Shown: positions 2,892 to 64,000 of the stretch, piece by piece
Numbering within the stretch: position 1 is the first letter of the stretch
Layout of the letters: every line of letters begins with the position of its first letter
Source: Escherichia coli
GTDB taxonomy: Bacteria; Pseudomonadota; Gammaproteobacteria; Enterobacterales; Enterobacteriaceae
Reading direction: 5' to 3' (one strand)
DNA length: 64,000 nucleotides
NCBI RefSeq assembly: GCF_024502345.1
Contig: NZ_JALDNN010000001.1
Program-made: the position numbers and the translations under genes
The notes under the pieces: generated by a model
The model's input: the letters and a program-made list of their open reading frames with translations, nothing else
Database searches by the model: none
Told to the model about the DNA's origin: nothing

Positions 2892-3008
2892 GCAGTTAAG
2901 ATAGCAAAACTTAAATGATTTGTTACATGAATCAGTTAAATGTGTGATGCGTACCATTTTTATTAAAAAAATTAATGTGTTTCAGTCAATTGCGAAAGGA
3001 TGATCACA

Positions 3009-3662
3009 ATGAAGAAAATTGGCGTAATTCTGAGCGGATGCGGCGTCTATGACGGTTCTGAAATTCATGAAGCGGTGTTGACGTTGTTAGCTATTTCACG
3101 CAGCGGTGCGCAGGCGGTCTGCTTTGCACCGGATAAGCAGCAGGTTGATGTTATCAACCATTTAACTGGCGAAGCGATGACGGAAACGCGCAACGTGCTG
3201 ATTGAAGCGGCACGAATAACGCGCGGTGAAATCCGTCCTCTGGCCCAGGCCGATGCCGCTGAACTGGATGCGTTGATTGTGCCGGGGGGGTTTGGCGCGG
3301 CGAAGAATTTAAGCAATTTTGCCACTCTTGGTAGCGAATGCACCGTTGACCGTGAATTAAAGGCGCTGGCACAAGCGATGCATCAGGCCGGAAAACCGCT
3401 TGGTTTTATGTGTATTGCCCCGGCGATGCTGCCGAAAATTTTCGATTTCCCGCTGCGTTTGACCATCGGTACTGATATCGATACCGCAGAAGTGCTGGAA
3501 GAGATGGGCGCGGAGCATGTGCCGTGTCCTGTCGATGATATCGTGGTTGATGAAGACAATAAGATTGTCACCACCCCAGCATATATGCTGGCGCAGAACA
3601 TTGCAGAAGCGGCGAGCGGCATTGATAAGCTGGTTTCCCGCGTGCTGGTTCTGGCTGAATGA
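3009..3662 (+). CDS. elbB: glyoxalase ElbB (DJ-1/PfpI-like)
   Basis: 217 aa from ATG at 3009 (track ORF starts 9 nt earlier); [21 protein letters not shown]. Confidence 0.9.
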
Positions 3663-4387
3663 GTAAAAGCCGCTTAACGGTGTTTAGTTTCGTTCGCCGT
3701 TTTCTTTTGCGGTTAATGGTTGTCCTCGCCGTTTTCTGGGGCGGGGGCATCGCGTTGTTTAGCGTTGCGCCTGTTCCCTTCTCAGCGGTAATGGTCGAGC
3801 GACAGGTCAGCGCCTGGCTGCATGGCAATTTTCGTTACGTGGCACATTCTGACTGGGTCAGTATGGATCAAATCTCGCCGTGGATGGGACTGGCGGTGAT
3901 TGCCGCAGAAGATCAGAAATTTCCTGAGCACTGGGGCTTTGATGTCGCTTCCATTGAGAAAGCCCTGGCGCACAATGAGCGCAATGAAAACCGTATTCGC
4001 GGTGCTTCAACGATTTCTCAACAGACAGCCAAAAATCTCTTTTTATGGGATGGGCGTAGCTGGGTTCGAAAAGGGCTGGAAGCCGGATTAACGCTGGGGA
4101 TAGAAACTGTCTGGAGCAAAAAGCGTATCCTGACGGTTTACCTGAATATCGCCGAATTTGGCGACGGTGTGTTTGGCGTCGAAGCTGCGGCACAACGTTA
4201 TTTCCACAAACCCGCGAGCAAACTTACCCGATCGGAAGCTGCCTTACTGGCAGCTGTATTACCTAATCCACTTCGTTTCAAAGTCTCCGCGCCATCGGGC
4301 TACGTGCGCAGCCGTCAGGCGTGGATTTTACGGCAGATGTATCAGTTAGGCGGTGAGCCGTTTATGCAACAACACCAGCTGGATTAA
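3659..4387 (+). CDS. mtgA: monofunctional peptidoglycan glycosyltransferase MtgA
   Basis: 242 aa; transglycosylase motifs; 4-nt overlap with elbB stop. Confidence 0.92.
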
Positions 4388-5016
4388 GCTTCGCGCGAAG
4401 CGAGGGCCAGCGTTTTGCTCTCACGAGGTTGCAGATCTTTCTGCAGGGCAATAGCCAGCGCCGGTTGGGCGATAAATCGTTTCCACAACCGCTCTTGCTT
4501 ACGCAGACAACACCACTTTGACCAGGTCGCCAGTGGAATCAATGTGCTTTCACCAATGTTGTCGCAGACAACGGGGATAACCTCTGACTCACTAATGCGG
4601 TGACAGAGGATATTCTGCGGCTTCAGCGACATCGTCACGATACGGTTATCCTGCAAATAACACTTCAGATGTTTCAGTAACTGGCGCAGTTGTGCAACGT
4701 CTTCTTCGTAACGGCATTGTTCAGCAAATTCGGTCAGCGTAATGGAGGGCTTGCCGTCAAAATCGGCAATCACATCGTAGACATAACCGGTTCCGCAATC
4801 CGTCTCAACGGTACCGTGATAGCGCGGTATTCCACTCCAGTCTTTTAACCGGCGACCAAGATGCGCGTAGTACTTTAACTCACGACGGATCTCTTTATCG
4901 CCACCATCGCCACGATGGTAGACAATCTTGATACAGCGTTGGGCATCTTCCGGATGCGCATAACATTTCCGATGTCTTCCGGTGCCCAGGGGACTTTGTT
5001 CAGATAAGCGAATCAT
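4384..5016 (-). CDS. yrbL: protein YrbL
   Basis: 210 aa ORF, convergent with mtgA; sequence and position as in K-12. Confidence 0.85.
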
Positions 5017-5229
5017 GCCATCTCCTGGAAATATTTTCTGACGATCTCCAGTATGGTCGATTAACTTAAACGAAACCTAAACAATGCTTCTTAAGGTTTT
5101 CTTAAGGTTCTTCTGAAAGTAAAAAGCGCACGAAATGTACAATTGACGTTGATTGAGAACGATTTCAGTACGTGATTTTCTTATTGTCGGGGGGAGTTTG
5201 AAGGGAGTTGTATGTCAAAGTGATGAAGA

Positions 5230-5502
5230 TTAATCTTCATCAAAACCAGAATTAAAGAGGGCGATAACGGCGGCCAGTGCTTCCTCTTCCTGTGGACCGG
5301 TCGCTTCAACTTCAATCTGCCGCCCTTTGGCAGAATCCAACATCAGCAGCGCAATAACGCTGTTGGCTTCAGCCTCGGTGCCTTCGTCATTACGTAACAG
5401 CACTTCAGCGTCAAAACCCTGCATTAATTCAAACAGCTTCATTGCAGGCCGGGCATGCATGCCCAGCTTGTTTGTGATTTCAACAGTTTGCTTGACGGTC
5501 AT
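5230..5502 (-). CDS. npr: phosphocarrier protein NPr
   Basis: 90 aa HPr-like protein ([10 protein letters not shown]); last gene of the rpoN operon. Confidence 0.93.
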
Positions 5503-6353
5503 GGTTTACGTTTTTCCAGCGTACGATGGCGTGACTGGACGTTTTTACCGCGCGAGCGGAAGTAGTCAGCCAGTTGCTCTGCAATATACACCGAACGGTG
5601 CTTCCCGCCGGTACAACCAATGGCGACCGTCAAGTAGCTACGGTTGTTGGTTTCCAGCATAGGTAACCATAGCTCAAGATAGCTTCGCGTCTGGTAGATA
5701 AAATTGTGTACTTCTGTGTGGCGGTCGAGGAACGCGGCGACAGGTTTATCAAGACCCGTCATTGGACGCAGTTTCGGATCCCAGTGCGGGTTCGGCAAGA
5801 AGCGCACGTCAAAGACGTAATCTGCATCGATAGGGATACCGTGTTTGAAGCCGAAAGACTCAAAGACCATGGTCAGTTCGCGTTCACGTTTACCCAGCAG
5901 ACGGGTACGCAGCATTTCAGCCAGCTCGTGAACGGACATTTCTGAGGTATCGACAATCAGATCCGCTCGCGAACGCAGAGGCTCCAGCAAATCGCTTTCT
6001 TTGTCGATAGCACTTTCCAGCGACAGGTTTTTGCTGGAAAGCGGATGCAGTCGGCGCGTGTCACTGTAACGACGAATTAAGGTATTACGGTCGGCATCCA
6101 GGAACAGGAGTTGCGGTGAGAAAGCGTCAGGCAGGTTACTCATCGCCTGTTCGAATATTTCTGGTGACTCCGGCATATTACGAACATCAATGCTGACGGC
6201 GGCAGAAATCTCGCGATCGGCCAGGGTTCGAGCCAGATCGGGTAACAACACTACGGGAAGGTTATCCACGCAGTAAAAACCCATATCTTCCAGCGCACGC
6301 AGGGCGACAGATTTACCTGAACCTGAACGTCCGCTGACGATCATCAGTACCAT
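5499..6353 (-). CDS. rapZ: RNase adapter protein RapZ
   Basis: 284 aa; Walker A GRSGSGKS; 4-nt overlap with npr. Confidence 0.93.
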
Positions 6354-6398
6354 GTACTGTTTCTCCTCACAACGTCTAAAAGAGACATTACCGAATAA

Positions 6399-6890
6399 CT
6401 ACGCTTCATCCGGAGTACCTTCGGTATCCGTAATGATTTGATACAGCTCTTCATCGCTCTGGGCTGCGCGTAAACGGCGGCAGATGGTTTTGTCCGCCAG
6501 ACGTTTCGCCACCAGCGACAGAGTATGCAGGTGCGTTTTAGTTTGGTCTGCCGGCACCAGCAGGGCAAAAAGTAAGTCCACCGGTTGGTTGTCGATGGCA
6601 TCGAAAGCTATAGGCGTTTCGAGCTGAACGAAAACGCCAACGGCGCGCAGAGTATCTTCTTCCAGTTTGCCATGCGGAATGGCAATACCATTGCCGATAC
6701 CGGTACTGCCCATTTTTTCCCGCGTCAGGATAGCTTCAAAAACCACCTGAGGCGGCAGGCTAAGTTGTTTCGCCGCCAGCTCGCTGATGATTTCCAGGGC
6801 GCGTTTTTTGCTCTGACAGTGGACGCGGCTTCGCGTACATTCCCTGTTAAGAACACTGCTAAGCTGTAGAGTTGTATCATTATTTGTCAT
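6399..6890 (-). CDS. ptsN: nitrogen-related PTS EIIA, PtsN
   Basis: 163 aa from ATG at 6890 (MTNNDTTLQL); track ORF is 8 codons longer. Confidence 0.9.
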   Translation of the reverse strand: MTNNDTTLQLSSVLNRECTRSRVHCQSKKRALEIISELAAKQLSLPPQVVFEAILTREKMGSTGIGNGIAIPHGKLEEDTLRAVGVFVQLETPIAFDAIDNQPVDLLFALLVPADQTKTHLHTLSLVAKRLADKTICRRLRAAQSDEELYQIITDTEGTPDEA

Positions 6891-7007
6891 AATTTCACCT
6901 AAGAACCTGCCCACTCAAACAGTGGAACAGGCTCGGAGCATTAACCGTACAAATGGCCCGTTGTGCCGCACAACAGGCCGCCATGCACATGCTAATTGCC
7001 CGGACAA

Positions 7008-7295
7008 TTAGTGTTGTTTCAGTTTATCTTTATGTTTGGTCAACTGGCGTGCCAGCTTATCAATTAAGCCATCAATGGCAGCGTACATGTCCTGACCTTC
7101 CGCGCTGGCATGAATTTCACCACCGTTTACATGCAGTGTTGCATCTGAGGTGTGGGTGACTTTCTCCACTTTCAGAACAACATAGACCTGGTTGATTCGG
7201 TCAAAATATTGCTCAAGTTTGGCAAATTTGGCTGTAACAAATTCGCGCAGTGCCTCGGTGATCTCGACGTTATTTCCGGTAATGTTGAGCTGCAT
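7008..7295 (-). CDS. hpf: ribosome hibernation promoting factor
   Basis: 95 aa from ATG at 7295 (MQLNITGNNVEIT); track ORF is 28 codons longer. Confidence 0.9.
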   Translation of the reverse strand: MQLNITGNNVEITEALREFVTAKFAKLEQYFDRINQVYVVLKVEKVTHTSDATLHVNGGEIHASAEGQDMYAAIDGLIDKLARQLTKHKDKLKQH

Positions 7296-7317
7296 AGTGT
7301 CTTCCTTATCGGTTGGG

Positions 7318-8751
7318 TCAAACGAGCTGTTTACGCTGGTTTGACGGCGGAATGGATAAAGACTCTCGGTACTTCGCAACAGTGCGGCGTGCCACCATGA
7401 TACCTTGTTCCGACAGCAAAGAGGTTAACTTGCTGTCGCTCAACGGTTTCGCTGGGTTTTCCGCCGCGATTAATTTCTTCACCAGCGCACGAATCGCCGT
7501 GGAGGAAGCTTCGCCGCCGCCCTCGGTATTGACGTGACTGGAAAAGAAATACTTCAGTTCAAAAATGCCTCGTGGACTATGCAGGTATTTTTGCGTGGTC
7601 ACGCGAGATATCGTCGATTCATGCATTTCGACAGCCTGGGCGATATCGGCCAGTACCATCGGTTTCATATATTCTTCACCTTGCTCAAAGAAGGCTTGCT
7701 GCTGTTCAACGATACAGCGACTCACGCGCAGTAGCGTATCGTTACGGCTTTCCAGACTCTTGATCAACCATTTGGCATCCTGCAGATTGCTGCGGATAAA
7801 CTGGCTGTCACCATCGTTGCGCGCGTTATTGCACATCGAGGCGTAGTGCTGGTTGATTTGCAGACGCGGAATGCTGTCACTGTTGAGTTCTACCGTCCAG
7901 TGACCGTTATGCTTACGCACCAGCACATCTGGAATGACATACTCAGGTTCGCCAGTCTGGATCGACTGCCCGGGGCGCGGATCGAGCGACTGGATCAGAT
8001 TGACGGCTTCTTTCAGCACATCTTCTTTCAGACGCGTGACGCGCATTAAAGTGCGGAAGTCGTGATTGGCTAACAGATCGAGATGATCGCTAATGATCAG
8101 TCTGGCCTCTTCCAGCCACGGCGTGGTTTTATCGAATTGGGAGAGTTGGATTAGCAGGCAGTCACGCAGATCTTTTGCCGCTACACCGACCGGATCAAAC
8201 CGTTGGATCCGCTTAAGGACGGCTTCAACCTCGTCGATGTCGATCTCTTCATCGCCCATACTTTCGAGAATATCTTCCAGCGGGACAGTCAGATAACCGG
8301 TGTCATCAACGGCATCGACGATAGAGGTAGCAATAGCGCGGTCAGTGTCGGAAAACGGTGTCAGCTCGACCTGCCACATCAGGTAATCCTGCAAGGTCTG
8401 CGTCGTTTCGCCCTGATAGACCGGCAGCTCATCGTCAATGTAGTCACCGCTGGTGCCGGATGGTGTACCAGCGGTGTAAATGGTGTCCCAACTGGCATCG
8501 AGCGGCAGCTCTTCCGGCATCTCTTTTTGTTCGAGCGCGTCGGCGGTGTCCAGCGTTTCACTGTCTTGCGTTTCGCGGGTGTCGATTTCTTCATGAGTGT
8601 CGATTTGCTCAAGCAGCGGATTACTCTCCAGCGCCTGCTGTAGCTCCTGCTGAAGTTCCAGCGTCGACAACTGCAACAGACGAATTGCCTGTTGAAGCTG
8701 TGGCGTCATCGCCAGTTGTTGGCTAAGCCTGAGTTGCAAACCTTGCTTCAT
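7318..8751 (-). CDS. rpoN: RNA polymerase sigma-54 factor
   Basis: 477 aa; Gln-rich N-terminus, acidic region, RpoN box ([10 protein letters not shown]). Confidence 0.97.
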
Positions 8752-8798
8752 GTTCAGAATCGTACTCTCCTGCTAAAACGTCGCAAACTTCTACCCTA

Positions 8799-9524
8799 TC
8801 AGAGTCTGAAGTCTTCCCCAAGGTATACACGCTTAACGTGTTCGTCTTGTAAGATTTCTGTAGGCGTGCCGTGGGCGATCAAATGCCCCTGACTGACGAT
8901 ATAAGCGCGTTCACAAACCGCCAGTGTTTCACGCACGTTGTGGTCAGTGATCAGCACGCCCAGGCCGCTGTCGCGCAGGTGCTCAATGATGCGTTTAATG
9001 TCGATAACCGAGATCGGGTCAACCCCGGCAAACGGTTCGTCGAGCAGAATAAATTTCGGATTCGCAGCCAGTGCGCGGGCAATTTCTACACGGCGACGTT
9101 CACCCCCGGAGAGTGACTGCCCCATGCTGTCACGCAGGTGCTCAATGTGAAACTCTTCCATCAGCTCGTTCGCGCGGTCTTCACGTTGTTCAGCAGACAA
9201 GTCGTCACGAATTTGCAGTACCGCCATCAGGTTATCGTAAACGCTGAGGCGACGGAAAATGGAGGCTTCCTGCGGCAGATATCCGATACCGCGGCGCGCG
9301 CGTGCATGCAGAGGCAGCAGACTGATATCGTCATCATCAATAATGATGTTGCCCGCATCGCGCGGCACAATGCCAACAACCATATAGAAAGTGGTGGTCT
9401 TACCGGCACCGTTTGGCCCCAGCAGACCGACAATTTCCCCGGAGTTGACGGTCAGGCTGACGTCTTCTACCACGCGACGGCCTTTATAGGCTTTTGCAAG
9501 GTTCTTTGCAGTTAATGTTGCCAT
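8799..9524 (-). CDS. lptB: LPS export ABC transporter ATPase LptB
   Basis: 241 aa; Walker [13 protein letters not shown] signature LSGGERRR. Confidence 0.97.
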
Positions 9525-9530
9525 AACGAA

Positions 9531-10088
9531 TTAATTACCCTTCTTCTGTGCCGGGGTCTGGCCTTTGTTGTTTTTGTCCTGCAGCTGCGACGGCACCAGA
9601 ACGGTGGTTACGCGCTTGCCTTTGTCGCTGAAAGCCTGCATTTTCTGCTCTTTCACCAGGTAAGTGATCTTATCGCCCTTAATGTTGCTATCGACCTGCT
9701 GCAGATAAGCATTACCCGTCAGAACGACAAAATCTTTTGCCAGTTCGTAGTGCATCTGGGAAGCGTGACCTTCAACGGGTTTACCGTTGTCCTGCATCTG
9801 GTAGAACGTTGCCGGTTTACCGTAGCCGTCAATCACTTCTTTACCTTGTTCGCCACCCGGACGGGTAACGACCACTTTGTCGGCATTAATTTTGATGGTG
9901 CCCTGGGTGACGATGACATTACCGGTAAAGGTAACCACGTTGCCTTGCATATCAAGAGATTGCTGGTCCGATTCAATGTGGATCGGCTGATCAGTGTCTC
10001 CGGTTACGGCAAATGCCGGAATGCTGGCGGCCAGAAGTGAGCTGGCAAGCACAAGATTAAGGCTGAGTTTGTTTGTTTTGAATTTCAT
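9531..10088 (-). CDS. lptA: LPS transport periplasmic protein LptA
   Basis: 185 aa from ATG at 10088 (MKFKTNKLSLNL); signal peptide; overlaps lptC 3' end. Confidence 0.92.
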   Translation of the reverse strand: MKFKTNKLSLNLVLASSLLAASIPAFAVTGDTDQPIHIESDQQSLDMQGNVVTFTGNVIVTQGTIKINADKVVVTRPGGEQGKEVIDGYGKPATFYQMQDNGKPVEGHASQMHYELAKDFVVLTGNAYLQQVDSNIKGDKITYLVKEQKMQAFSDKGKRVTTVLVPSQLQDKNNKGQTPAQKKGN

Positions 10089-10632: not shown

Positions 10633-11195
10633 ATCGATTGCCCTTTGGCTTCATCCAGTTTGCCCCGCGCCAGGAGTAATAAGTCGCAAACTTCGCGCAC
10701 TGCGCCACGACCGCCAGCAATGCGCGTCACGTAATCGGCGCGCGGGATCAACAGTGGATGCGCATCGGCCACGGCGACGCTTAAACCCACTTTTTCCATT
10801 ACCGGCCAGTCGATGAGATCATCGCCGACATAAGCCACATTTTCTGGGGCAATCGCCAATTTTTCCAGCAGATCGCTAAAGGCGATCAGTTTGTTTGACT
10901 GCCCCTGATACAAGTGAGTGATCCCCAATGTGGCACAACGATCTTCTACCAGTTTAGCCTTTCGCCCGGTAATGATAGCGACTTCAATATCAGAGGTGAG
11001 CGCACAACGAATGCCATAACCGTCACGAACATTGAACGCTTTCAGCTCTTCGCCGTTATTGCCCATATAAATCAGGCCATCTGACAGTACGCCATCAACG
11101 TCGAGGATTAGCAGACGAATGTTCTCTGCTTTTGCTATAACGTCGGCGCTGACAGGGCCGTAACAGGTCGCAAGCGACGCACCTGCTTTGCTCAT
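10629..11195 (-). CDS. kdsC: KDO 8-phosphate phosphatase KdsC
   Basis: 188 aa HAD family (ILDVDGVLSDG); 4-nt overlap with lptC. Confidence 0.93.
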   Translation of the reverse strand: MSKAGASLATCYGPVSADVIAKAENIRLLILDVDGVLSDGLIYMGNNGEELKAFNVRDGYGIRCALTSDIEVAIITGRKAKLVEDRCATLGITHLYQGQSNKLIAFSDLLEKLAIAPENVAYVGDDLIDWPVMEKVGLSVAVADAHPLLIPRADYVTRIAGGRGAVREVCDLLLLARGKLDEAKGQSI

Positions 11196-11215
11196 TGTTG
11201 TTTATCCTTGAATCT

Positions 11216-12202
11216 TTACACTACGCCTGCACGCAGTAAATCATGCATATGTAACACACCGAGTAAATGGTCGCCATCGGCAACCATCACGGAGGTGATA
11301 TGGCGGGACTGCATTAAGTTCAGTGCCTCAACGGCCAGAATGCCAGGGCGCACGCGTATTCCCCCCGGCGTCATCACATCGGCAATACTTAACTGACGAA
11401 CATCCACGCCCATATCGAAGACACGGCGTAAATCACCGTCGGTAAAGATGCCTTCAATCATCATATTGTCATCGCAAATGACAGTCATACCAAGATTTTT
11501 GCGGGTAACTTCCAGCAACGCGTCACGCAGACTGGCCGTTTTCTTAACATGCGGGATCTCATCGCCCGTATGCATAATATCGTTTACGCGCAGCAGAAGT
11601 TTACGACCCAGTGCGCCGCCTGGGTGTGAGAGCGCAAAATCTTCAGCAGTAAAGCCGCGTGCTTTTAACAGCGCGACAGCGAGGGCATCGCCCATAACCA
11701 GCGTGGCGGTGGTGCTGCTGGTCGGTGCCAGCCCTAACGGACAGGCTTCTTTCGCTACTTTAACACACAGATGCACATCTGCGGCGCGCGCCATGCTGCT
11801 CTCCGGGCGACCGGTGATGCAGATTAACGGTACGTGAAGACGCTTAAGCACTGGAATTAAGGCAGTGATTTCGCTGGATTCACCTGAGTTAGAGATAGCA
11901 ATCACCACATCCTGTGGGGTGACCATGCCTAAATCACCATGCGCGGCTTCACCAGGATGGACGAAAAATGAAGGTGTACCGGTGCTGGCAAACGTTGCGG
12001 CCATTTTGCGCCCGATGTGCCCCGATTTCCCCATCCCCATGACGACAACTTTCCCTTTACACCAGAACATCTTTTCACAGGCAAGCGTGAAATTCTGATT
12101 GATGTATTGATCAAGCTCCGCCAGGCATTCACGTTCAATCGCCAGGACTTCTTTACCTGCTTGCTGAAAGTCAAAACCCGGTTGTAACTCTACGTGCGAC
12201 AT
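11216..12202 (-). CDS. kdsD: arabinose 5-phosphate isomerase KdsD
   Basis: 328 aa from ATG at 12202 (MSHVELQPGFD); SIS plus tandem CBS regions. Confidence 0.92.
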   Translation of the reverse strand: MSHVELQPGFDFQQAGKEVLAIERECLAELDQYINQNFTLACEKMFWCKGKVVVMGMGKSGHIGRKMAATFASTGTPSFFVHPGEAAHGDLGMVTPQDVVIAISNSGESSEITALIPVLKRLHVPLICITGRPESSMARAADVHLCVKVAKEACPLGLAPTSSTTATLVMGDALAVALLKARGFTAEDFALSHPGGALGRKLLLRVNDIMHTGDEIPHVKKTASLRDALLEVTRKNLGMTVICDDNMMIEGIFTDGDLRRVFDMGVDVRQLSIADVMTPGGIRVRPGILAVEALNLMQSRHITSVMVADGDHLLGVLHMHDLLRAGVV

Positions 12203-12215
12203 AATGCGTTTCCAG

Positions 12216-13193
12216 TTATTCAACGAGTATTGGCGATAACCAGTACAACATCGCCAGCCATACGATAAATCCGCCAGTTAATAATACCCCTACACCACGG
12301 CCCGGTTGCGGGGAGCGCCGCCAGCACAGCAACGCAAAAATAATGCTCACCAGCAACATCACGCTGTAGTCACGACTGTACGCCAGTGGATCAATCTCTC
12401 CTGGCGTTATCAGCGCGGGTAAACCCAACACGATGACAATATTAAAAATGTTTGCGCCAATGATATTTCCGACAGCAATGTCGTTTTCACCTTTGCGAAC
12501 GCCCGCTATTGCGGTTGCCAGTTCCGGCAGGCTGGTTCCGATAGCAATTGCCGTCAGACCCATCGTCAACTCGCTGATGGCAAAGTAATTCGCCAGCACC
12601 GTGGCGTTATCAACCACCATCCGCGTGGCCACTGGCATGATGATAAGCGCAATGCCGAGCCATAAAAACGCGACGGGCAATCCGCCGTCACGCGGCAGCT
12701 CTGCAAGCTGCTCTCTGGTCAGGCTGTCAGTCCCCTGACGTTCAGCCTGACGTGCAAGTTTAACAATGAACAGCAGCCATAGCACAGCCAGAAAGAGGAG
12801 AAAGATACCATCGCTGCGACTAAGTTGTCCGTCATAGAGTACGGAACCGGCCACCACGCTGACCAACAACATTAAGGGTAATTCACGGCGTAGAACATCA
12901 GAATGGACGGTAAAAGGACGAACCAGCGCAGCCAGACCGAGGATCAGCAATATATTGATAATGTTTGAGCCGAGGGCTGTACCAACGGCTAAATCGCGTT
13001 GTTCGTGCAGAGACGCGGCAAGCGAGACGATGATTTCTGGTAACGATGTACCAATACTGACCACCGTCATGCCGATGATCAGCGGCGGGATGCCAAAGGT
13101 TCGGCAAAGAATAGACGCGGCAAAAACCAGGCGGTCGGCACTGTAAACGACCAAAAGTAAACCAACAATTAACAGTGCCGTAGCTAAAAGCAT
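12216..13193 (-). CDS. yrbG: Na+/Ca2+ exchanger family inner membrane protein YrbG
   Basis: 325 aa polytopic membrane protein with duplicated GTSLPE motifs. Confidence 0.9.
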   Translation of the reverse strand: MLLATALLIVGLLLVVYSADRLVFAASILCRTFGIPPLIIGMTVVSIGTSLPEIIVSLAASLHEQRDLAVGTALGSNIINILLILGLAALVRPFTVHSDVLRRELPLMLLVSVVAGSVLYDGQLSRSDGIFLLFLAVLWLLFIVKLARQAERQGTDSLTREQLAELPRDGGLPVAFLWLGIALIIMPVATRMVVDNATVLANYFAISELTMGLTAIAIGTSLPELATAIAGVRKGENDIAVGNIIGANIFNIVIVLGLPALITPGEIDPLAYSRDYSVMLLVSIIFALLCWRRSPQPGRGVGVLLTGGFIVWLAMLYWLSPILVE

Positions 13194-24360: not shown

Positions 24361-24607
24361 AATCTCGCGCTAACAACCTGGAATCGAGCCGTCATACTAC
24401 GGCGCAACGCCCTATAAAGTAAACGATGACCCTTCGGGAACTTCAGGGTAAAATGACTATCAAAATGTGAATTGTAGCTGACCTGGGACTTGTACCCGGG
24501 TCGGTATTTTTTTGCTTCTGGTCCCGGTGAGGAGTTATGCCGGGCAGGCCGAACAGCCGGGGTGGGTGAAGACTTGCCCCATCAGGAATATTCAAGAGGT
24601 ATAACAA

Positions 24608-31164: not shown

Positions 31165-31251
31165 GCCGAGGTGGTGGAATTGGTAGACACGCTACCTTGA
31201 GGTGGTAGTGCCCAATAGGGCTTACGGGTTCAAGTCCCGTCCTCGGTACCA
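31165..31251 (+). tRNA. leuU: tRNA-Leu (anticodon GAG)
   Basis: 87 nt; acceptor stem GCCGAGG/CCTCGGT, anticodon loop CTTGAGG, long variable arm, 3' CCA encoded. Confidence 0.9.
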
Positions 31252-34153: not shown

Positions 34154-34230
<77 letters not shown>

Positions 34231-34351
34231 CTTTCCCTTAGAGTCCTTTTTCAAATATACTGTGAAGACTTCGGCCTTCGTAGTGGGATTTGAAAAAATC
34301 CTTCTGGAAAGTGCTCCAGACCGCAGTTGCGGTTATAGGGTTCAGTTATAT

Positions 34352-34378
34352 AAAGCCCCGATTTATCGGGGTTTTTTG
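34352..34378 (+). terminator. terminator/attenuator-like hairpin between metY and rimP
   Basis: AAAGCCCCGATTTATCGGGGTTTTTTG; a second weaker hairpin plus T7 run follows at about 34398-34420. Confidence 0.5.
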
Positions 34379-34436
34379 TTATCTGACTACAGAATAACTG
34401 GGCTTTAGGCCCTTTTTTTATGTCTTGGGGGTGGGC

Positions 34437-39114: not shown

Positions 39115-39188
39115 GTAGGCCGGATAAGGCTTTTACGCCGCATCCGGCAGCCGTTGCCTGATGTGACGCTGGCGCGTCTTATCAGGCC
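39115..39188. repeat. REP (repetitive extragenic palindrome) pair
   Basis: GTAGGCCGGATAAGGC...ACGCCGCATCCGGCA and GCCTGATGTGACGCTGGCGCGTCTTATCAGGCC. Confidence 0.7.
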
Positions 39189-40662: not shown

Positions 40663-41137
<475 letters not shown>

Positions 41138-41274
41138 AGGTTCGCGCGGCTAATGAGAGGCTTTACCCACATTGGGCTGGGTTAGGGTTGTCATTAGTCG
41201 CGAGGATGCGCAGAAGATCGGGTATTAACACCAGTGCCGTAAGGTACTGTCTAAGAAAGAGAAAGGATATTACA

Positions 41275-57047: not shown

Positions 57048-59041
57048 GATAACTTCCTGTTAATCACGCAATCCGGGTTTGCCGTCAGGCTTCCGGTATT
57101 ACCGTTGATTTCAAAACCCTGAACCTGGCGCATTTGTGAGAAATGATTTGCCAGCGACCAGGCATCGACGCCCATCGCATACATGCGAGCCAGTGAATAA
57201 TCGTTATTCACCGCGCTGAGTGCCTGCTGCATTAACGGCAGATTACCGCCCGCCAGCATCGGGATTTCGCTGTACTGCAAACCTTCCATCTCCAGACGGA
57301 AATCCGGGCCTGCGGTGCCTTGTGCGCTGCGGGAGCTGGCGTACAGCATTGCACCGCTCTGGCTACCGTTACGCATGGCGATCATCGGTTTGATAAAAGC
57401 GATTTCACCCGGCGTTGCCACAATGTACACCGCATCGACACGACCGCCATTATTGGTGAACTGGTCATCGGTTGGCGTGGTTTGCAGCGTTGGATTGTTG
57501 GTCGTCATACCGGAGTCGGTTGTCGCTCTGGGAGTAATCGGTGTACCCGTTAAAGCGATACCAGAACCGCCGTTAACACCCGCGCGTAATTCGCTGGTGG
57601 AACCAAATTTTTGTTGCAGAACGGTGCCGCCGCCCAGTTTCTGCCACTCTTGCGCAAACGCATTGGCTACGCGATCGCCCAATGAACTGCGTGGGATCAG
57701 CACCAGCGGCGCTTGTTTACCCTGGTCACGAATATGACGCGCTGCATCGCGCGCTTCGTCTTCCGGTGAAAGCGCGAAGTAACAAATATTGACGCGGTTT
57801 TCGATATTCTCCGGCTGGTTCAGTGCCAGTACGTTCAGCGGGGTGTTGCTCTTCAGCAACTCTTCAACGTTATTTTTCAGCAACGGACCAACCACAATAC
57901 TCGCGCCATCCTGCTGAACCTGGCTTAAGATCTGGCTAAGTGGTTGTGATGAGGTATCGTAGATTTTCAGCTCTGCGGATGGATTTGCGGGTGCGCTTAC
58001 CGCTGCGGTGCTTGTGGCCGGGGCGCTTACAGGCACCGGCTGGGCCGCAGGCTGTTCACCGGTCAGATCGCTAACCGAGGCTTGTGCCGGGCTGGCAACG
58101 CCATCCACGGTTTGCGGCTGAGGTTGTTCAGCTACGTCTGCGGCAGGTGCGGCAGCTACCTGAGCCGCCACTGGCTGAGTGCCGATATTTTTCGCCGCTT
58201 CAAAGCCTTGCTGAATAGTGCGACCAAATACCGCTGCCTGGCCATTCAGCGGCAACAGCAGGGCGATTTTGTTGGTCGAGGCTGGTTTAAACGCTTTTAC
58301 GTTAACCAACTGCGTTGGCAGCATTTTCGCGCCCGGATTGTTCGGATAACGTTTTTGCCAGTCGGCGATCCCGGCTTTCATCATGTCGGGATCGTTACGG
58401 TTATCAAACCAGACGCGCTGCAGATCCAGCCAGCCTTGCAGAATATTTTCGTCGGCGTTGATCACCAGCGTATTCGCCTGTTCCTGAGTCATGGAGGAGA
58501 GCGCCTGCCAGGTGGCATCAATATTCTGCTGTTTTTCTTTCGCGCCGAGCAGCGGTTCCTGAGCAATTAACGCGCGCAGTAAATCAATGGAAGGACGCCC
58601 CTGGCTGGCATCGATTTTTGCCTGCCAGTAACGCGCTTGCTGGTTTTGTTCTAAATCGGCAGGTGTGATTTTCGCCAGCAAGTTTTGCGCGCCAGCAAAA
58701 TCTTTCTGCGCCAGTTTAATCTCTACCGCCAGCAGTGTTTTCTCGCGACGCTGAGAATCGTTCAGTTCTTGCGGTAGTTGGTTAAACAACTCAACCGCCT
58801 GCCCGGTTTTACCTTCTTTCACCAGTGCACGAATGGCGAGTAATTGCCAGTTGATCCTGGTATCATCAGAGCTTTGCTGCATCTGCTGAAGATAAAAGGC
58901 AGAATCAGCCTGCGCCGTGCCCTGCATATAAGCAGTGGACTGATCGGGAGTATGGGTGCCACAACCGGCGAAAATCAGGGCTGCCAGAACAACAGGCAGA
59001 CAACGCGCGGCTTTCAAACGAGAAAATGTTGAGGGTACCAT
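57005..59041 (-). CDS. lpoA: PBP1A activator lipoprotein LpoA
   Basis: 678 aa; lipobox FAGC; Ala/Pro/Gln-rich linker. Confidence 0.9.
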
Positions 59042-59104
59042 AATGTATCCAGTGATATTTTTTTACGCAATGCTCAATATTAAATCGGCAATACGGACGA
59101 CACA

Positions 59105-59965
59105 ATGAAACAACACCAATCGGCGGATAATTCTCAGGGCCAGCTTTACATTGTACCGACGCCAATCGGCAATCTGGCGGATATCACCCAGCGTGCGTTA
59201 GAGGTATTACAGGCCGTTGATCTGATTGCCGCCGAGGATACTCGTCACACCGGTTTATTGCTGCAACATTTTGGGATTAATGCCCGGTTGTTTGCGCTGC
59301 ACGACCATAACGAACAACAAAAAGCCGAAACGCTGCTGGCGAAGCTGCAAGAGGGGCAAAACATTGCGCTGGTTTCCGATGCCGGAACGCCGCTAATTAA
59401 CGATCCTGGCTACCATCTGGTGCGTACCTGCCGTGAAGCGGGGATTTGCGTGGTGCCGCTACCCGGGCCGTGTGCTGCTATCACTGCGTTAAGCGCCGCG
59501 GGTTTACCCTCTGACCGTTTCTGTTACGAAGGCTTTTTACCTGCCAAATCAAAAGGCCGCCGTGATGCGCTAAAAGCCATTGAAGCGGAGCCGCGCACGC
59601 TGATTTTTTATGAATCCACCCACCGTCTGTTAGATAGCCTGGAAGATATCGTTGCGGTATTAGGCGAATCCCGCTACGTGGTTCTGGCGCGTGAGCTGAC
59701 CAAAACCTGGGAAACCATTCACGGCGCGCCCGTTGGCGAGCTGCTGGCGTGGGTAAAAGAAGATGAAAACCGTCGCAAAGGCGAAATGGTGCTGATTATC
59801 GAAGGTCATAAAGCACAGGAAGAAGACTTACCCGCCGATGCCCTGCGCACGCTGGCGCTGCTACAGGCAGAACTGCCGTTGAAAAAAGCGGCGGCGCTGG
59901 CGGCAGAAATTCACGGCGTGAAGAAAAATGCGCTGTATAAGTATGCGCTGGAGCAGCAGGGGTAA
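59105..59965 (+). CDS. rsmI: 16S rRNA C1402 2'-O-methyltransferase RsmI
   Basis: 286 aa; divergent from lpoA. Confidence 0.9.
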
Positions 59966-60007
59966 GAGTGCCGAAGCGTTGCGTTAATCAAAACGCAACG
60001 TCTTCTT

Positions 60008-61099
60008 TTACCGCACGATGACGGTAATGGTGGCGGTGCCCTGAAATTTTCCTGTTTCCAGCTCACCACCGACCAGATTAACTGGCCAGGCGCGCATGTT
60101 GATGGTGCCATGCCCGGAAGGATCAACGGGAAGGATACCGTTCTGAAAAGGAATATTTGCAACTCCGCCGCCGAGATTTTCAATACGAATACCGACATCG
60201 GGCGCATTGTCTGAACTTCTTCGTCTGGCGACCAGGTTGTACTGGTCTACTACCCCAGTTGTACCGTCGATGCGCATTTGCAACGAGTTTTTAATCTTTG
60301 AAGTATCACCACAGTCATAAGTGATATCAAAGTCTACTGGAGTAAAACCGTCTGGCATGGCATTGCGGGTGGTAAACTTCTGACCATTGATGAATCCAAA
60401 ATTAACCTTAATAACATCGCCCTGATTAATTTTGCACGACTGTGGGGCGGTGAGATTTCCCTGAATCGATAACTTGACTAAATCATGGAAGTCACCTGTA
60501 GACGGGCTTCCCATTCCATCGACCCATGCGCCTTTAATGACGGCAATATCCGTTTTCGGAATGGTCATCGAGCCGAGAAATGGCTTGGTGACATACAGGG
60601 TAAAGGTGGTATTTGCACCAATATTAACGGGTCCATAACGAGACGTGTCACCCTGGCAAACACCCGTTTGAGTTGCAGCAGAATATACGGTGTTGCTTTT
60701 TATCTGTGTGAATCGGGTGTTAACAGAAACGGTCTGGTCAGTCACGAGTCCTGGAATGTCATTCGCCTGTAATGTGGTTTTAATATCCAGACTATCATTG
60801 AGTTTGTAATATCCTGCTTGATGTCCAGTGGTGGTAAGTACAGGGCTGACCATATAGACAAGTTTAACTGCCTTACCCGCAGAGCAGGTACAGGCGTATT
60901 GCCAGTTAGTGCTACTTAGCGTGGCAGAGGTAAACTCCCGTCCTGTCACGTTATCTGTCTGGTTCACCGTAACATCATCAACCACACTGCTGTAATTTGT
61001 CGCACCGCTAGTGCTGTCAGCTCCACACCCTCCTGAGGAGGCATAAGCGCAGGATGTGGATATCAACAAAAGTCCTGTTATAAGAGGCGCTCTTTTCAT
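60008..61099 (-). CDS. yraK: fimbrial adhesin-like protein YraK
   Basis: 363 aa from ATG at 61099 (MKRAPLITGLLLISTSCAYA); track ORF extends 86 codons into the usher gene. Confidence 0.8.
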   Translation of the reverse strand: MKRAPLITGLLLISTSCAYASSGGCGADSTSGATNYSSVVDDVTVNQTDNVTGREFTSATLSSTNWQYACTCSAGKAVKLVYMVSPVLTTTGHQAGYYKLNDSLDIKTTLQANDIPGLVTDQTVSVNTRFTQIKSNTVYSAATQTGVCQGDTSRYGPVNIGANTTFTLYVTKPFLGSMTIPKTDIAVIKGAWVDGMGSPSTGDFHDLVKLSIQGNLTAPQSCKINQGDVIKVNFGFINGQKFTTRNAMPDGFTPVDFDITYDCGDTSKIKNSLQMRIDGTTGVVDQYNLVARRRSSDNAPDVGIRIENLGGGVANIPFQNGILPVDPSGHGTINMRAWPVNLVGGELETGKFQGTATITVIVR

Positions 61100-61109
61100 T
61101 TTTTTATCC

Positions 61110-63626
61110 TTAATGGCACTGCGCCGTGCCTTGTAATACAGAGGTTGTTGGTTCTGAATCCGGTGTACTAAAAGCAAACTGACATTGTTGATCTGCCTGA
61201 TTTCCCCAGCGTACAGTCCAGCTTTGTGATTTACTCGATATCCCAGAGAGATATAGTATGCCGCCCTCATCGACGATACTTTGTTGCCCCGTCTCATCGT
61301 TGCTGGCAAGAGCGCCAAAGGGCAACGGTTTACCGTTGCGATCGCTGACTGTAACAAGTACGCGATAACCGATATTGGCGTTGAAACGCGCCGCTACCAT
61401 TGCACCTCTGTTGGGCACCACAAACTGTGTTGTTTGCTCAAGATCGACGTTATCGGGCAGCTGCGTAGTATCTACCGAGAGACGGTTTTCCTGGTAAGTC
61501 GTGAGATAAGGAACCACTGCATAGCCAAAGGGATCAGTAGCAATCCCCGGATAGTTTTGTATCCTCACGCCAGAAGCCCCATTAGCATCGATAAGCGCAA
61601 AAGCGTTGCCCAGATATTGCGAGAGCGTCACGCCATGAGGATGGATAACCACGCCGCCGGTAACGCCGTAATTGTATTGGCTGCTGTCATTACCGTAACT
61701 GTATCCGGCACTGAAGGTGCCATAAGGTGAACGGTAACTGGCGTTCAGGCTACTGTTATGGTTGTTATCGTCATCCAGACTTTGTTCCAGGCTATAGCTC
61801 AGGCGACCATCATCCAGCAGTGAGCCATCAAGACGCATTTCATGTTGGGTTGGGCGATCTTTCTGGCTGGTCATCTGATAGGAAACCCGGCTACGCGGTA
61901 ACCAGCGTTCTAACGGAATACTGAGATTCAAAGAGAGTGCGCGGTCATTATTTTGATCCGTGTAGCGACTGTATTGATAATTCAGGCTGTAACCAATTCC
62001 CCATTGCTGGCCGGAAACCCCAACTGAGATATTCCTGTTTTTATCGTTATTGCCCCAATAGTCTTGCTGCGAACCGGAGGCATACAGACTTACCCCATCA
62101 AATATTGTCTGGCTGATGTTGAATTGAATTTCACTTTTTTGGCGACTGTTATAGTCCCAATTGCGGGTATTGGCTTCATCAAAACTAAAATAGCCATCGT
62201 TGGTATAGCGATAGTAGCTAACAGCGATATTGGTGTTGGTTTCCGGGATATCTTTGATGTACTGCGTACGCCATTGATAGCCATGAAAAGAGTGCTGGTT
62301 ATCGAATTGGGTGTCAGCTCTGTTGATATCCATCGACAACGCGCCCAGTGCGCCAAGTGTGCCGCCGATACCGATCCCCAGCGCATAATAATCTTCAGAA
62401 CCGAGCAGGCCGCCATACAGCGTAAAAGTATTATTCAAACCATATATTGCCGTGGCTTCAGCAAATTCGGGTTCCTTGCTATCACTGTTTGCATCAGCGC
62501 GATAGCGTCCAGCGGTCGCGCTATATTTTAGATGCCCAGGTCGCTGCATCATGGGTAATGAAGAATAAGGCTGGATAAAGCGACGTTGTGTACCGTCACT
62601 TTCTTCAATCGTGACTTCTAAATCGCCGCTGTTGGAAGAGGGGTAGAGATCGTTAATTTCAAAGGCACCCGCTGGCACGTTGCTTTGATAGATCACATAA
62701 CCATTTTGCCTGATAGTCACGATTGCACTACTGTTTGCGATACCGCGTACCGTTGGGGCAAATCCGCGCTGGCTGTTTGGCAACATATTATCGTCGGAAG
62801 CGAGTTGCACGCCAGTAAAGGTGTAGCTGGAAAAAATACTGCCGCTGGTGGCGCTTTCTCCCAGAAGCAACTGAGACTTCAACGCCTTGATATCACGTTG
62901 TAAATAACTACTGATAGTGTTCCAGCTTGACGCCTGATCGTTGCGTGTCCACGTAGAATAGTTACGTAATCGCCAGGGGCCAAAATTAGCACCATTTTGC
63001 ATATTCAGGTACTGTCGTTGGCTACGATTGCCCTGGCGGTAACGGTTATTAGAACCTGTAAACGAGTAGTTGGTAAACAGCGTTGGTATACCATCGTCCC
63101 AACGAGAAGGGGAGACGTAACCTCTTGCATCACGGTACAGTGCAATTTGGGGAATGCTCAAATTAAGTCGCTGATGATTGAAATCAAATTCAGCAGCTGT
63201 ACCGGGAATGATTTGTTCAAGCGAGTTGATCACGCTATCGTCATCTTTTTCAGCCAGCGCCGGGATTTCATCCACCTTAATACCCAGCTCACGTAGTTGT
63301 TCTACCGTAAACTGTGGCTGCAGAAGTTGCTCTGCATTGGCGGTAAATGTAATTTTTTTCTGTGAAACCTTCTTTTTATTCAGCCAGATATCAACCTGAT
63401 AAGTTCCTGGTAGTTGTGCGTATTTTTTTGAAAAACGTGACAGATCAGTTGTTTGCATACCACTTTTTGTAGTTTCCAGCATAATGGGGTCGAAATAATA
63501 CTCTTCGGCGTTAGCGGTAGTGCAAAGCATGCCGCTGCCAGTGAGCACCATCGGCAAACAGCGTTTGATGATGAGCGCCAACTGTTTCGGTGTGCGTTTA
63601 TGTCCCTGGTGGTGTCGTTGTGGCAT
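61110..63626 (-). CDS. yraJ: fimbrial outer membrane usher YraJ
   Basis: 838 aa. Confidence 0.85.
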   Translation of the reverse strand: MPQRHHQGHKRTPKQLALIIKRCLPMVLTGSGMLCTTANAEEYYFDPIMLETTKSGMQTTDLSRFSKKYAQLPGTYQVDIWLNKKKVSQKKITFTANAEQLLQPQFTVEQLRELGIKVDEIPALAEKDDDSVINSLEQIIPGTAAEFDFNHQRLNLSIPQIALYRDARGYVSPSRWDDGIPTLFTNYSFTGSNNRYRQGNRSQRQYLNMQNGANFGPWRLRNYSTWTRNDQASSWNTISSYLQRDIKALKSQLLLGESATSGSIFSSYTFTGVQLASDDNMLPNSQRGFAPTVRGIANSSAIVTIRQNGYVIYQSNVPAGAFEINDLYPSSNSGDLEVTIEESDGTQRRFIQPYSSLPMMQRPGHLKYSATAGRYRADANSDSKEPEFAEATAIYGLNNTFTLYGGLLGSEDYYALGIGIGGTLGALGALSMDINRADTQFDNQHSFHGYQWRTQYIKDIPETNTNIAVSYYRYTNDGYFSFDEANTRNWDYNSRQKSEIQFNISQTIFDGVSLYASGSQQDYWGNNDKNRNISVGVSGQQWGIGYSLNYQYSRYTDQNNDRALSLNLSIPLERWLPRSRVSYQMTSQKDRPTQHEMRLDGSLLDDGRLSYSLEQSLDDDNNHNSSLNASYRSPYGTFSAGYSYGNDSSQYNYGVTGGVVIHPHGVTLSQYLGNAFALIDANGASGVRIQNYPGIATDPFGYAVVPYLTTYQENRLSVDTTQLPDNVDLEQTTQFVVPNRGAMVAARFNANIGYRVLVTVSDRNGKPLPFGALASNDETGQQSIVDEGGILYLSGISSKSQSWTVRWGNQADQQCQFAFSTPDSEPTTSVLQGTAQCH

Positions 63627-63655
63627 TCCCTGATGACCTGTGTTTTTTATATTTG

Positions 63656-64000
63656 TTATTGCAGTGGACGAGTTTCTGTCCTGGAACTGCCGCCATAATC
63701 ATTGATTGCAGCCCATTTCACGTTCTTTCCGCCAGATGCAGGAAGTGGTAACTGTTTATGTTCTCCGGGCGCGATATATTCAATTTTGCTTGTGAGATCG
63801 GTTTTATCGACTGCCAGTCCGGCAAATACGACGTAATATTCAGTTGGGTTATATATATTGAGTGAATGGTCACTACGTTTAAATTCCAGTGATGTCCACG
63901 CATCGTTTACCCGTCCCTTCAGGTGTGCGGGGCGATAAAACATTTTGATCCGTGTTTTAAATACCAGCGTCAACTCGTTAGCATTAACATCATCTGATTT
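63656..64000 (-). CDS. yraI: fimbrial periplasmic chaperone YraI, C-terminal part (gene continues past window end)
   Basis: PapD-like chaperone C-terminal domain (NPTEYYVVF); lies upstream of the usher. Confidence 0.75.

Follow-up and report, generated by a model that had tools for sequence, protein, structure and literature searches.

The genes at the end of the analysed stretch of E. coli DNA (64,000 nucleotides, hereafter the window) are very probably the distal three of the E. coli yraHIJK chaperone-usher operon, carried here as an undamaged allele of a kind typical outside K-12. The list of open reading frames places yraK, yraJ and the 3′ end of yraI tail-to-head on the minus strand between positions 60008 and 64000. 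The first of these, yraK (60008..61099), is intact and encodes a predicted two-domain fimbrial tip adhesin (363 aa plus a stop codon; identified by ORF, Pfam and LpfD matches). The adjacent yraJ (61110..63626), also intact, encodes an outer-membrane usher of 838 aa, supported by ORF, Pfam and PDB matches. Only the 3′ part of yraI (63656..64000), recognized by the Pfam model PapD_C, lies in the window: its last 114 codons and stop, cut by the window edge. The flanking core gene rsmI (59105..59965), which is outside the operon and was identified from its ORF and annotation, encodes a 16S rRNA C1402 2′-O-methyltransferase. It is located on the plus strand, so its arrangement with the yra genes is convergent, and a spacer of 42 bp separates it from yraK.

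No internal stops or frameshifts were found in yraK, yraJ or the visible part of yraI, and the lengths of yraK and yraJ equal those of their K-12 counterparts. This answers the check for damaged reading frames set by the initial annotation. The gene identities and lengths given there agree with the ORFs, Pfam, the annotation and the K-12 comparison, and the tail-to-head order convergent with rsmI is borne out by the ORF list and by the annotation of a near-identical genome. The longer version of the yraK frame, extended to 449 aa by a TTG start, was dismissed as a mechanical artefact, since the annotated ATG at 61099 agrees with K-12 and all homologues; the small overlapping ORFs of the list were treated in the same way.

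The near-identical genome is NZ_CM149872.1, a pig-derived E. coli chromosome, which in a megablast search matched window positions 59000-64000 with 100% coverage and 99.9% identity (3 base differences in 5001 bases). The closest matches include isolates from pig and cattle and of O111-type. RefSeq labels in the matching region of NZ_CM149872.1 are yraK, yraJ, yraI, rsmI and lpoA, and its YraK (WP_000817005.1) and YraJ proteins are identical to those of the window. Beyond the equivalent of the window edge it carries yraI (231 aa), yraH (194 aa) and then agaI. YraH, the major subunit, matches PF00419 (E 6e-27), and its gene is also found in K-12; both genomes place it past the edge, in keeping with the earlier statement that the major subunit gene and the promoter are outside the window. 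Because yraH, the promoter and the first 117 yraI codons lie beyond base 64000, we infer the completeness of the operon from NZ_CM149872.1.

The same 5 kb stretch is ~98% identical to the yraHIJK region of K-12. In strain MG1655 this operon (b3142-b3145) has the same genes, order and lengths as in the window and NZ_CM149872.1 and the same agaI and rsmI-lpoA flanks, so that the synteny agaI-yraHIJK-rsmI-lpoA is common to K-12 and NZ_CM149872.1. The operon is one of twelve chaperone-usher operons catalogued in E. coli K-12 (PMC8174762), and it is listed as a gamma-1 cluster in the E. coli W genome paper (PMC3032704). The yra fimbrial genes described here were thus already known, and the finding is correct but ordinary. 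According to PMC3032704, which cites Korea et al., poorly known gamma-1 clusters including yraHIJK are cryptic or poorly expressed, as the initial annotation had stated for K-12. The accessible portion of Wurpel et al. 2013 makes no mention of Yra.

Chaperone-usher fimbriae depend on a dedicated usher and periplasmic chaperone, and both were recognized here. YraJ contains PapC_N (residues 44-190, E 4e-46), Usher (206-748, E 8e-217) and PapC_C (757-822, E 2e-19) domains, with the Usher model matched over its full length (1-549). Among proteins of solved structure it matches FimD (E ~1e-175) and PapC (E 1e-89). It therefore has the N-terminal domain, the barrel with plug and the C-terminal domains of a chaperone-usher system. 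The YraI fragment in the window matches PapD_C (E 1e-12), preceded by a match to the last 23 positions of PapD_N that falls below threshold; the full 231-aa YraI of NZ_CM149872.1 contains both PapD_N (E 5e-41) and PapD_C, and its solved relatives include FimC (E 2e-43) and PapD. Together, the window fragment and the full protein of the near-identical genome identify YraI as a PapD-like chaperone with two Ig domains. Near its C-terminus the window YraI carries Arg (base 63682) where K-12 and NZ_CM149872.1 both have Gly.

YraK, which the initial annotation called adhesin-like, resembles the tip adhesin LpfD in both sequence and predicted fold. Its putative signal peptide (residues 1-20, MKRAPLITGLLLISTSCAYA; 61040..61099, minus strand), read from the sequence with a presumed cleavage site, is followed by a putative receptor-binding N-terminal domain with approximate boundaries (~residues 21-205; 60485..61039, minus strand) and a C-terminal pilin domain (~residues 206-363; 60011..60484, minus strand). 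Within the latter, residues 211-362 match the family Fimbrial (PF00419, E 8e-31). An alignment of homologues revealed four invariant cysteines in the N-terminal domain (C25, C70, C72 and C148), and the C222/C263 pair is invariant across 57 homologues. Mean column conservation across genera is 0.56 for the N-terminal domain versus 0.70 for the C-domain. The PF00419 match, the C222/C263 pair and the superposition of the pilin domain on known pilins (below) place YraK among classical chaperone-usher pilin-type subunits, while its size (363 aa; ~300-360 aa for the type) and its position as the last gene of the operon conform to the layout of a two-domain tip adhesin.

A sequence search of the PDB aligned residues 45-360 of YraK with LpfD (5AFO; E 1e-11), covering both domains. 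The AlphaFold2 model of YraK has a mean pLDDT of 82.9, with residues 1-17 below 50. When this predicted model was used in Foldseek, LpfD ranked best (E 5.6e-19, ~20% identity), followed by CupB6, CsuE, FimH and PapG, and the top 19 matches were two-domain adhesins. The N-terminal domain also matches F17-G/GafD lectin domains over ~200 columns, and the pilin domain matches FimA, FimG and PapA with target-normalised TM-scores of 0.62-0.73 over ~150 columns. Full-length TM-scores against two-domain adhesins are low (0.25-0.40), which limits the structural claim; they probably reflect a differing orientation of the domains and the modelling of YraK without a donor strand.

The initial annotation had raised allelic variation of the tip subunit; such variation exists and is small. 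All E. coli yraK alleles found by megablast among 5,426 complete genomes (3,521 genomes with a match) have at least 95% nucleotide identity. The window yraK differs from b3145 of K-12 in 2.84% of bases (97.2% identity) and its product in seven residues (S71T, T95A, T119V, V123T, N135S, V299A and V333I), five of which fall in the N-terminal half. The yraJ gene differs from b3144 in 1.39% of bases (98.6% identity) and likewise in seven residues, two changes fall in the portion of YraI inside the window, and the yraI-yraJ spacer is 29 nt long in the window versus 28 nt in K-12. Among eight E. coli alleles, 9 of the 12 polymorphic residues of YraK are located in the N-terminal domain. The dN/dS values against K-12 (0.13 for yraK and 0.07 for yraJ) are similar to those of rsmI (0.09) and lpoA (0.10), which indicates that the yra genes are maintained by purifying selection. 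Positive selection on the tip adhesin was considered and rejected, given the dN/dS range of 0.07-0.18 over seven pairwise comparisons. In the N-terminal half of yraK both dS and dN are raised (dS 0.14 vs 0.03, against K-12), a pattern that suggests a segment of greater age or recombinant origin and not adaptive change. For annotation, the window contributes an intact, selectively maintained yra copy, in contrast to O157:H7 and the yra-less strains, and an adhesin allele whose differences from K-12 lie chiefly in its putative receptor-binding half.

Within the spacer between rsmI and yraK lies a terminator-like hairpin (59976..60001), whose 10-pair stem precedes CTTCTTTT when read on the plus strand. 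The folding energy of positions 59960-60015 is -23.3 kcal/mol (z -4.4) for the plus strand and -20.7 kcal/mol (z -3.9) for the minus strand, and the hairpin sequence is identical in K-12. It is likely a transcription terminator common to the convergent rsmI and yra units. Three promoter-like sites were observed versus 7.1 expected from shuffled sequences, which gives no sign of an internal promoter. No Rfam match was obtained across 59-64 kb, and the repeats of the stretch are only short two-copy matches, as chance predicts.

Type 1 fimbriae (fim) use the same class of assembly machinery as yra, YraJ corresponding to FimD and YraI to FimC, with FimH among the fold matches of YraK. In contrast to fim, yra lacks genes for FimF/FimG-type adaptors and for FimI. 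Expression of type 1 fimbriae is governed by the fimB/fimE invertible switch, and such a switch is not evident near yra in the gene list of NZ_CM149872.1. The long polar fimbriae of adherent-invasive E. coli LF82 provide the solved structure closest to YraK (LpfD, 5AFO) in sequence and in predicted fold; LpfD and YraK share the two-domain adhesin layout, and the ushers and chaperones of the two systems are related. The lpf operon, however, has five genes (lpfABCDE) and occupies another locus, whereas yra has four (PMC3032704). Among E. coli systems, UshABCD of EPEC E2348/69 and ST131, a member of the Gamma* clade, is described as most closely related to YraJ, and its four genes are laid out alike, with a subunit, then chaperone and usher, and finally another subunit (PMC5717340). 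The same paper notes that adhesins of the YraJ clade and of UshABCD are like LpfD or CupB6, and reports that UshABCD never co-occurs with YraJ. The locus tag of UshC (ECSF_0165) suggests, by its number, a position different from that of yra.

By analogy with the well-studied Fim and Pap systems, YraH, YraK and YraI would be exported across the inner membrane via the Sec pathway, and the chaperone YraI would cap the incomplete immunoglobulin-like fold of the subunits by donor-strand complementation. The usher YraJ, predicted to form an outer-membrane barrel that has a plug as well as N- and C-terminal domains, would take the YraI-YraK complex first, which would put YraK at the tip of the fibre, and would then polymerise YraH beneath it by donor-strand exchange. 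As a putative LpfD-type two-domain adhesin, YraK would be joined to the fibre by its C-terminal pilin domain, and its more variable N-terminal beta-sandwich presumably binds a receptor. Transcription would start upstream of yraH, outside the window, and read through to the hairpin shared with rsmI; in laboratory culture the operon is reportedly silent. In the compared locus L001, the upstream region of ~400 bp is rich in AT, with 28% GC in the 500-bp window that covers it.

The yra operon is not a constant part of E. coli chromosomes. The yraK gene was detected in 65% of the 5,426 complete genomes. In three of the sampled strains, JJ1886 (ST131) among them, the interval from rsmI to agaI cleanly lacks yra, and IS insertions occur in several strains. 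In O157:H7 it has decayed, with yraK frameshifted and an internal stop in yraJ. Its lack in about a third of the genomes and its decay in O157:H7 indicate that the operon is dispensable. These observations, the crypticity reported for K-12 and the location of yraH, the yraI 5′ part and the promoter outside the window would all suit an evolutionary remnant that makes no fimbria here, through damage beyond the edge or permanent silencing. We consider this very unlikely, since no damage is seen in the three reading frames, which are under purifying selection, and the nearest genome has intact yraI and yraH. Papers citing Korea et al. 2010 (PMC12711010, PMC3032704) report function of yra on forced expression in K-12, where according to the former it aids bladder-cell adhesion, and yraH, yraI and yraJ transcripts are higher in HUS-associated non-O157 STEC (PMC6033998).

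If the operon is functional, YraK might still have a structural role, as tip or initiator subunit, and not act as a receptor-specific lectin, with Yra fimbriae giving non-specific attachment or biofilm only. No ligand is known for YraK, its identity to LpfD is low, allele variation within E. coli is slight and shows no positive selection, and no curated adhesin equivalog was matched: YraK scored 73.5 bits against LpfD (NF011753; cut-off 412) and 38.4 bits against FimH (NF011746; cut-off 472). Given the latter score, mannose binding cannot be assumed, and with all curated scores far under the cut-offs the ligand specificities of LpfD and FimH are not transferable. Nevertheless, the size and two-domain layout of YraK are those of tip adhesins, its best fold matches are all adhesins, its N-terminal domain is the more variable one across genera and alleles, as expected of a receptor-binding module, and the adhesion cited in PMC12711010 is cell-type-specific; a purely structural role is therefore unlikely. 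The nearest curated families of the cluster (LpfD, LpfC, FimD and FimC) and the nearest solved adhesin (LpfD) might also suggest that another fimbrial type, long polar or type 1 fimbriae, has been mistaken for yra. This has next to no probability: it is refuted by megablast identity (97-99.9% to annotated yraK, yraJ and yraI), by the syntenic position between agaI and rsmI, and by the equivalog scores above, including that of the usher against LpfC (740; cut-off 1271). Judged by its sequence, YraK is a relative of LpfD and not itself an LpfD.

Homology between the window and yra-less genomes stops at position 962 of the 59000-64000 query, i.e. at the rsmI stop codon, which by this comparison marks the border of a variable fimbrial slot. 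The cassette in the window is of the type common in E. coli. In two E. coli genomes and in other Escherichia, the agaI-rsmI slot was found to hold four-gene operons that are yra-like and very divergent. One such operon (L017-like) is present in 2 of the 5,426 complete E. coli genomes, with the same breakpoints as the common cassette, and at least four further yra-family types adjoin rsmI in other Escherichia backgrounds; adhesins of the slot operons are 46-53% identical. For other loci of E. coli, the literature already gives a general account of fimbrial operons replacing one another in place (PMC3559732, PMC3032704). We tentatively conjecture that the rsmI-agaI position is a genus-wide interchangeable cassette site, at which yra-family operons are swapped or deleted via recombination in near-identical flanks under selection for receptor specificity, though we would not yet favour this over other accounts. 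Such a site may resemble surface-antigen loci, and its variable occupancy offers a simple natural system for the exchange of fimbrial repertoires.

The published mutual exclusion of YraJ and UshC probably does not reflect allelism at this slot, which is empty in JJ1886 (ST131), and the tag of UshC suggests another locus. Deeply divergent yraK allele classes within E. coli were also considered and rejected: apart from the two L017-like genomes, megablast returned the alleles of at least 95% identity described above. Divergent operons of E. whittamii and of one Logan contig, used as queries, had no match in the 5,426 E. coli genomes, while a query of an 80%-identity type (L016) matched ordinary yra only, at 82%.

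The ORF list places three fimbrial genes on the minus strand at the end of the window: a 363-aa yraK frame, read from a conserved ATG at 61099 and ending at 60008, yraJ (838 aa, 61110-63626), and a yraI frame (63656-64000) that runs past the window edge. They are convergent with rsmI (59105-59965, plus strand), with a 42-bp spacer between them by ORF coordinates. Pfam searches identified a Fimbrial domain in residues 211-362 of YraK (E 8e-31), PapC_N, Usher and PapC_C in YraJ (E 4e-46, 8e-217 and 2e-19, respectively), and PapD_C in the YraI fragment (E 1e-12), bearing out the arrangement proposed in the initial annotation. Comparison with K-12 revealed no stop codon or frameshift inside the yraK, yraJ or visible yraI frames, in line with the earlier impression of intact genes, and yraK and yraJ have retained their K-12 lengths.

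When 59000-64000 of the window was searched by megablast in 5,426 complete E. coli genomes, the whole query matched the pig isolate NZ_CM149872.1 at 99.9% identity; 3 of 5001 bases differ and the YraK and YraJ proteins are identical. RefSeq annotates yraK, yraJ, yraI, rsmI and lpoA in that genome, which confirms the operon assignment. Both NZ_CM149872.1 and K-12 have the order agaI-yraH-yraI-yraJ-yraK, then convergent rsmI, then lpoA, so the major subunit gene yraH and the promoter lie just outside the window, as had been supposed. Relative to K-12, the divergence is 2.84% of bases (7 residues) for yraK, 1.39% (7) for yraJ, 0.87% (2) for the visible part of yraI, 1.05% (2) for rsmI, 1.33% (6) for lpoA and 0.76% (2) for yraN. 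Both the observation and the interpretation in the initial annotation were right: this is a known, catalogued operon carrying an intact common allele, and the window content is as expected throughout. The non-coding yraI-yraJ spacer (63627-63655) is 29 nt long versus 28 nt in K-12, its A-run being one A longer, and base 63682 gives a YraI Gly-to-Arg change, 8 residues before the C-terminus, absent from K-12 and NZ_CM149872.1.

Among solved structures, YraJ matches FimD ushers (E about 1e-175) and PapC (1e-89), while full-length YraI, taken from NZ_CM149872.1, has both PapD domains and matches FimC (2e-43). At the sequence level YraK is related to a single solved structure, LpfD, the tip adhesin of long polar fimbriae (PDB 5AFO; both domains aligned, E 1e-11). 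The predicted YraK structure (mean pLDDT 82.9, disorder limited to the signal peptide) likewise gave LpfD as the top Foldseek match in the PDB (E 5.6e-19), followed by CupB6, CsuE, FimH, PapG and FocH, all two-domain tip adhesins. Its N-terminal half superposes on F17-G/GafD lectin domains, and its C-terminal half on the pilins FimA, FimG and PapA. Full-length TM-scores against the adhesins were low (0.25-0.40), which we attribute to domain orientation. An adhesin likeness to LpfD or CupB6 had been noted for the YraJ clade using Phyre2 (PMC5717340). Of 76 YraK homologues collected, 57 full-length sequences were aligned, and their invariant cysteines are consistent with two N-domain disulfides plus the canonical pilin disulfide. 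The nearest NCBIfam families are LpfD, LpfC, FimD and FimC, but all scores fall far under the equivalog cut-offs; Yra is thus a relative of these systems and a member of none.

The assembly route of Fim and Pap fimbriae, through Sec, chaperone, usher and donor-strand exchange, is well established. By analogy, Yra subunits would be exported by the Sec pathway and stabilised by YraI via donor-strand complementation. YraJ would recruit YraI-YraK first, placing the adhesin at the tip, and YraH would then be polymerised beneath YraK by donor-strand exchange.

The rsmI/yraK spacer contains a hairpin (59976-60001) with folding energies of -23.3 kcal/mol on the plus strand (z -4.4) and -20.7 kcal/mol on the minus strand (z -3.9), followed by a U-run on the rsmI strand; it is plausibly a shared terminator of the rsmI and yra units. 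The operon has a GC content of 43-50%, compared with 51-57% in the flanks. The 400-bp agaI-yraH gap, which lies outside the window edge (12017-12416 of the NZ_CM149872.1 locus), is very AT-rich: a 500-bp segment over it has 28% GC versus about 51% across all 64 kb of the window. Such composition of the operon and the yraH upstream region fits the reported silencing of such operons, and the AT-rich gap itself a promoter region silenced by nucleoid proteins. The crypticity in K-12 stated in the initial annotation agrees with PMC3032704, which counts yraHIJK among the gamma-1 clusters and describes it, like other little-known clusters of this type, as cryptic or poorly expressed in K-12. When expressed, the operon aids bladder-cell adhesion, according to PMC12711010 citing Korea 2010, and HUS-associated non-O157 STEC have higher levels of yra transcripts (PMC6033998).

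Allelic variation of the tip adhesin, raised earlier as an open question, exists but is small. Of the 5,426 genomes, 3,521 have a yraK match (covering at least 80% of its length in 3,183), always at 95% identity or more (1,158 at ≥99%, 2,363 at 95-99%). Eight alleles have 12 variable residues, nine of them within residues 1-205; the main differences of the window protein from the K-12 type are T71, A95, V119 and T123. The dN/dS of yraK (0.07-0.18) is close to that of yraJ (0.07), rsmI (0.09) and lpoA (0.10). Between the window and K-12, dS in yraK is about five-fold higher for the N-terminal half (60485-61099; 0.14) than for the C-terminal half (60011-60484; 0.03), which suggests a recombinant, mosaic or older segment in the putative receptor-binding half. 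Adaptive change there is disfavoured, since synonymous divergence itself is raised. Across genera the N-domain is also less conserved (mean column identity 0.56 versus 0.70 for the C-domain). The variation pattern typical of adhesins is present in yraK, but weak.

An intact copy, as in the window, is the commonest state of the operon, though not a universal one. While rsmI occurs in 5,424 of the 5,426 genomes, only 3,432 match 80% or more of the 5-kb query. In JJ1886 (ST131) and two other sampled strains the whole operon is gone, and the rsmI and agaI stops are 49 bp apart (9971-10019 of the JJ1886 locus). The 3′ ends of the flanking genes vary with occupancy: rsmI is 861 nt long where yra is present and 864 nt where it is absent (window 59960-59965; JJ1886 locus 9964-10031), and agaI has 756 and 768 nt, respectively, which places the breakpoints inside the 3′ ends of both genes. 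In O157:H7 F7386 (6001-9261 of its locus) the operon has decayed: yraK carries an annotated frameshift, an internal stop interrupts yraJ, and only 67% of the window yraK is covered, as two pieces. The neighbouring agaI of this strain (11050-11805) has an internal stop too. yraK features were flagged as predictors of O157:H7 clinical outcome in a 2025 machine-learning study (PMC12711010). An IS903B-associated deletion removed most of the operon and the aga cluster in one strain (7001-8338 of its locus), and independent insertions of ISEc52, IS2, IS3 family, IS1203 and ISKpn26 elements interrupt yraJ or yraK in several others, including NZ_CP025856.1, NZ_CP148374.1, NZ_CP125889.1 and NZ_AP027191.1.

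The agaI-rsmI interval (window 59966-64000), occupied by yraHIJK in most E. coli, is a polymorphic slot. Two of the 5,426 genomes, NZ_CP151004.1 and NZ_CM192120.1, carry a very divergent yra-like four-gene operon. The copy examined, that of NZ_CP151004.1, sits between agaI and rsmI (2900-8976 of the locus), and its flanks keep 97.6-98.5% identity to the ordinary arrangement as far as both stop codons; the cassette DNA is at most 69% identical, the usher 58% and the adhesin 49%. A 1,047-bp spacer of 33% GC takes the place of the agaI-yraH gap. Four further divergent types lie beside rsmI, in Escherichia whittamii (L013, 4098-9116) and Escherichia-like contigs (L015, L016 and L017). The E. whittamii four-gene operon is convergent with rsmI (usher 63%, adhesin 46% identical), its RsmI, LpoA, YraN and DiaA being 96-99% identical to those of E. 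coli; the other three ushers are 59%, 69% and 87% identical. Filled by yra, empty, or filled by a divergent operon, the slot occurs in three or more states in E. coli, and the genus adds several further ones. Exchange of cassettes by recombination in the flanks is a conjectural explanation. Same-locus replacement of fimbrial operons has been noted for other loci (PMC3559732; PMC3032704). The slot probably does not explain why YraJ and UshC are reported to exclude each other, as the UshC tag ECSF_0165 points to another locus.

YraK homologues of only 40-53% identity were found in Citrobacter, Klebsiella, Salmonella, Kluyvera and E. whittamii, and Citrobacter portucalensis has a yra-like operon at an unrelated locus. 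Elsewhere in the window, Rfam matches to ArcZ, the greA leader, two tRNAs, the rimP leader, naRNA4, the S15 leader and SraG (gathering threshold; 2784-2891, 24391-24512, 31165-31248, 34154-34419, 39118-39188, 40701-40815 and 41045-41216) are ordinary E. coli features that identify the window as the arcB-to-yra part of the chromosome.
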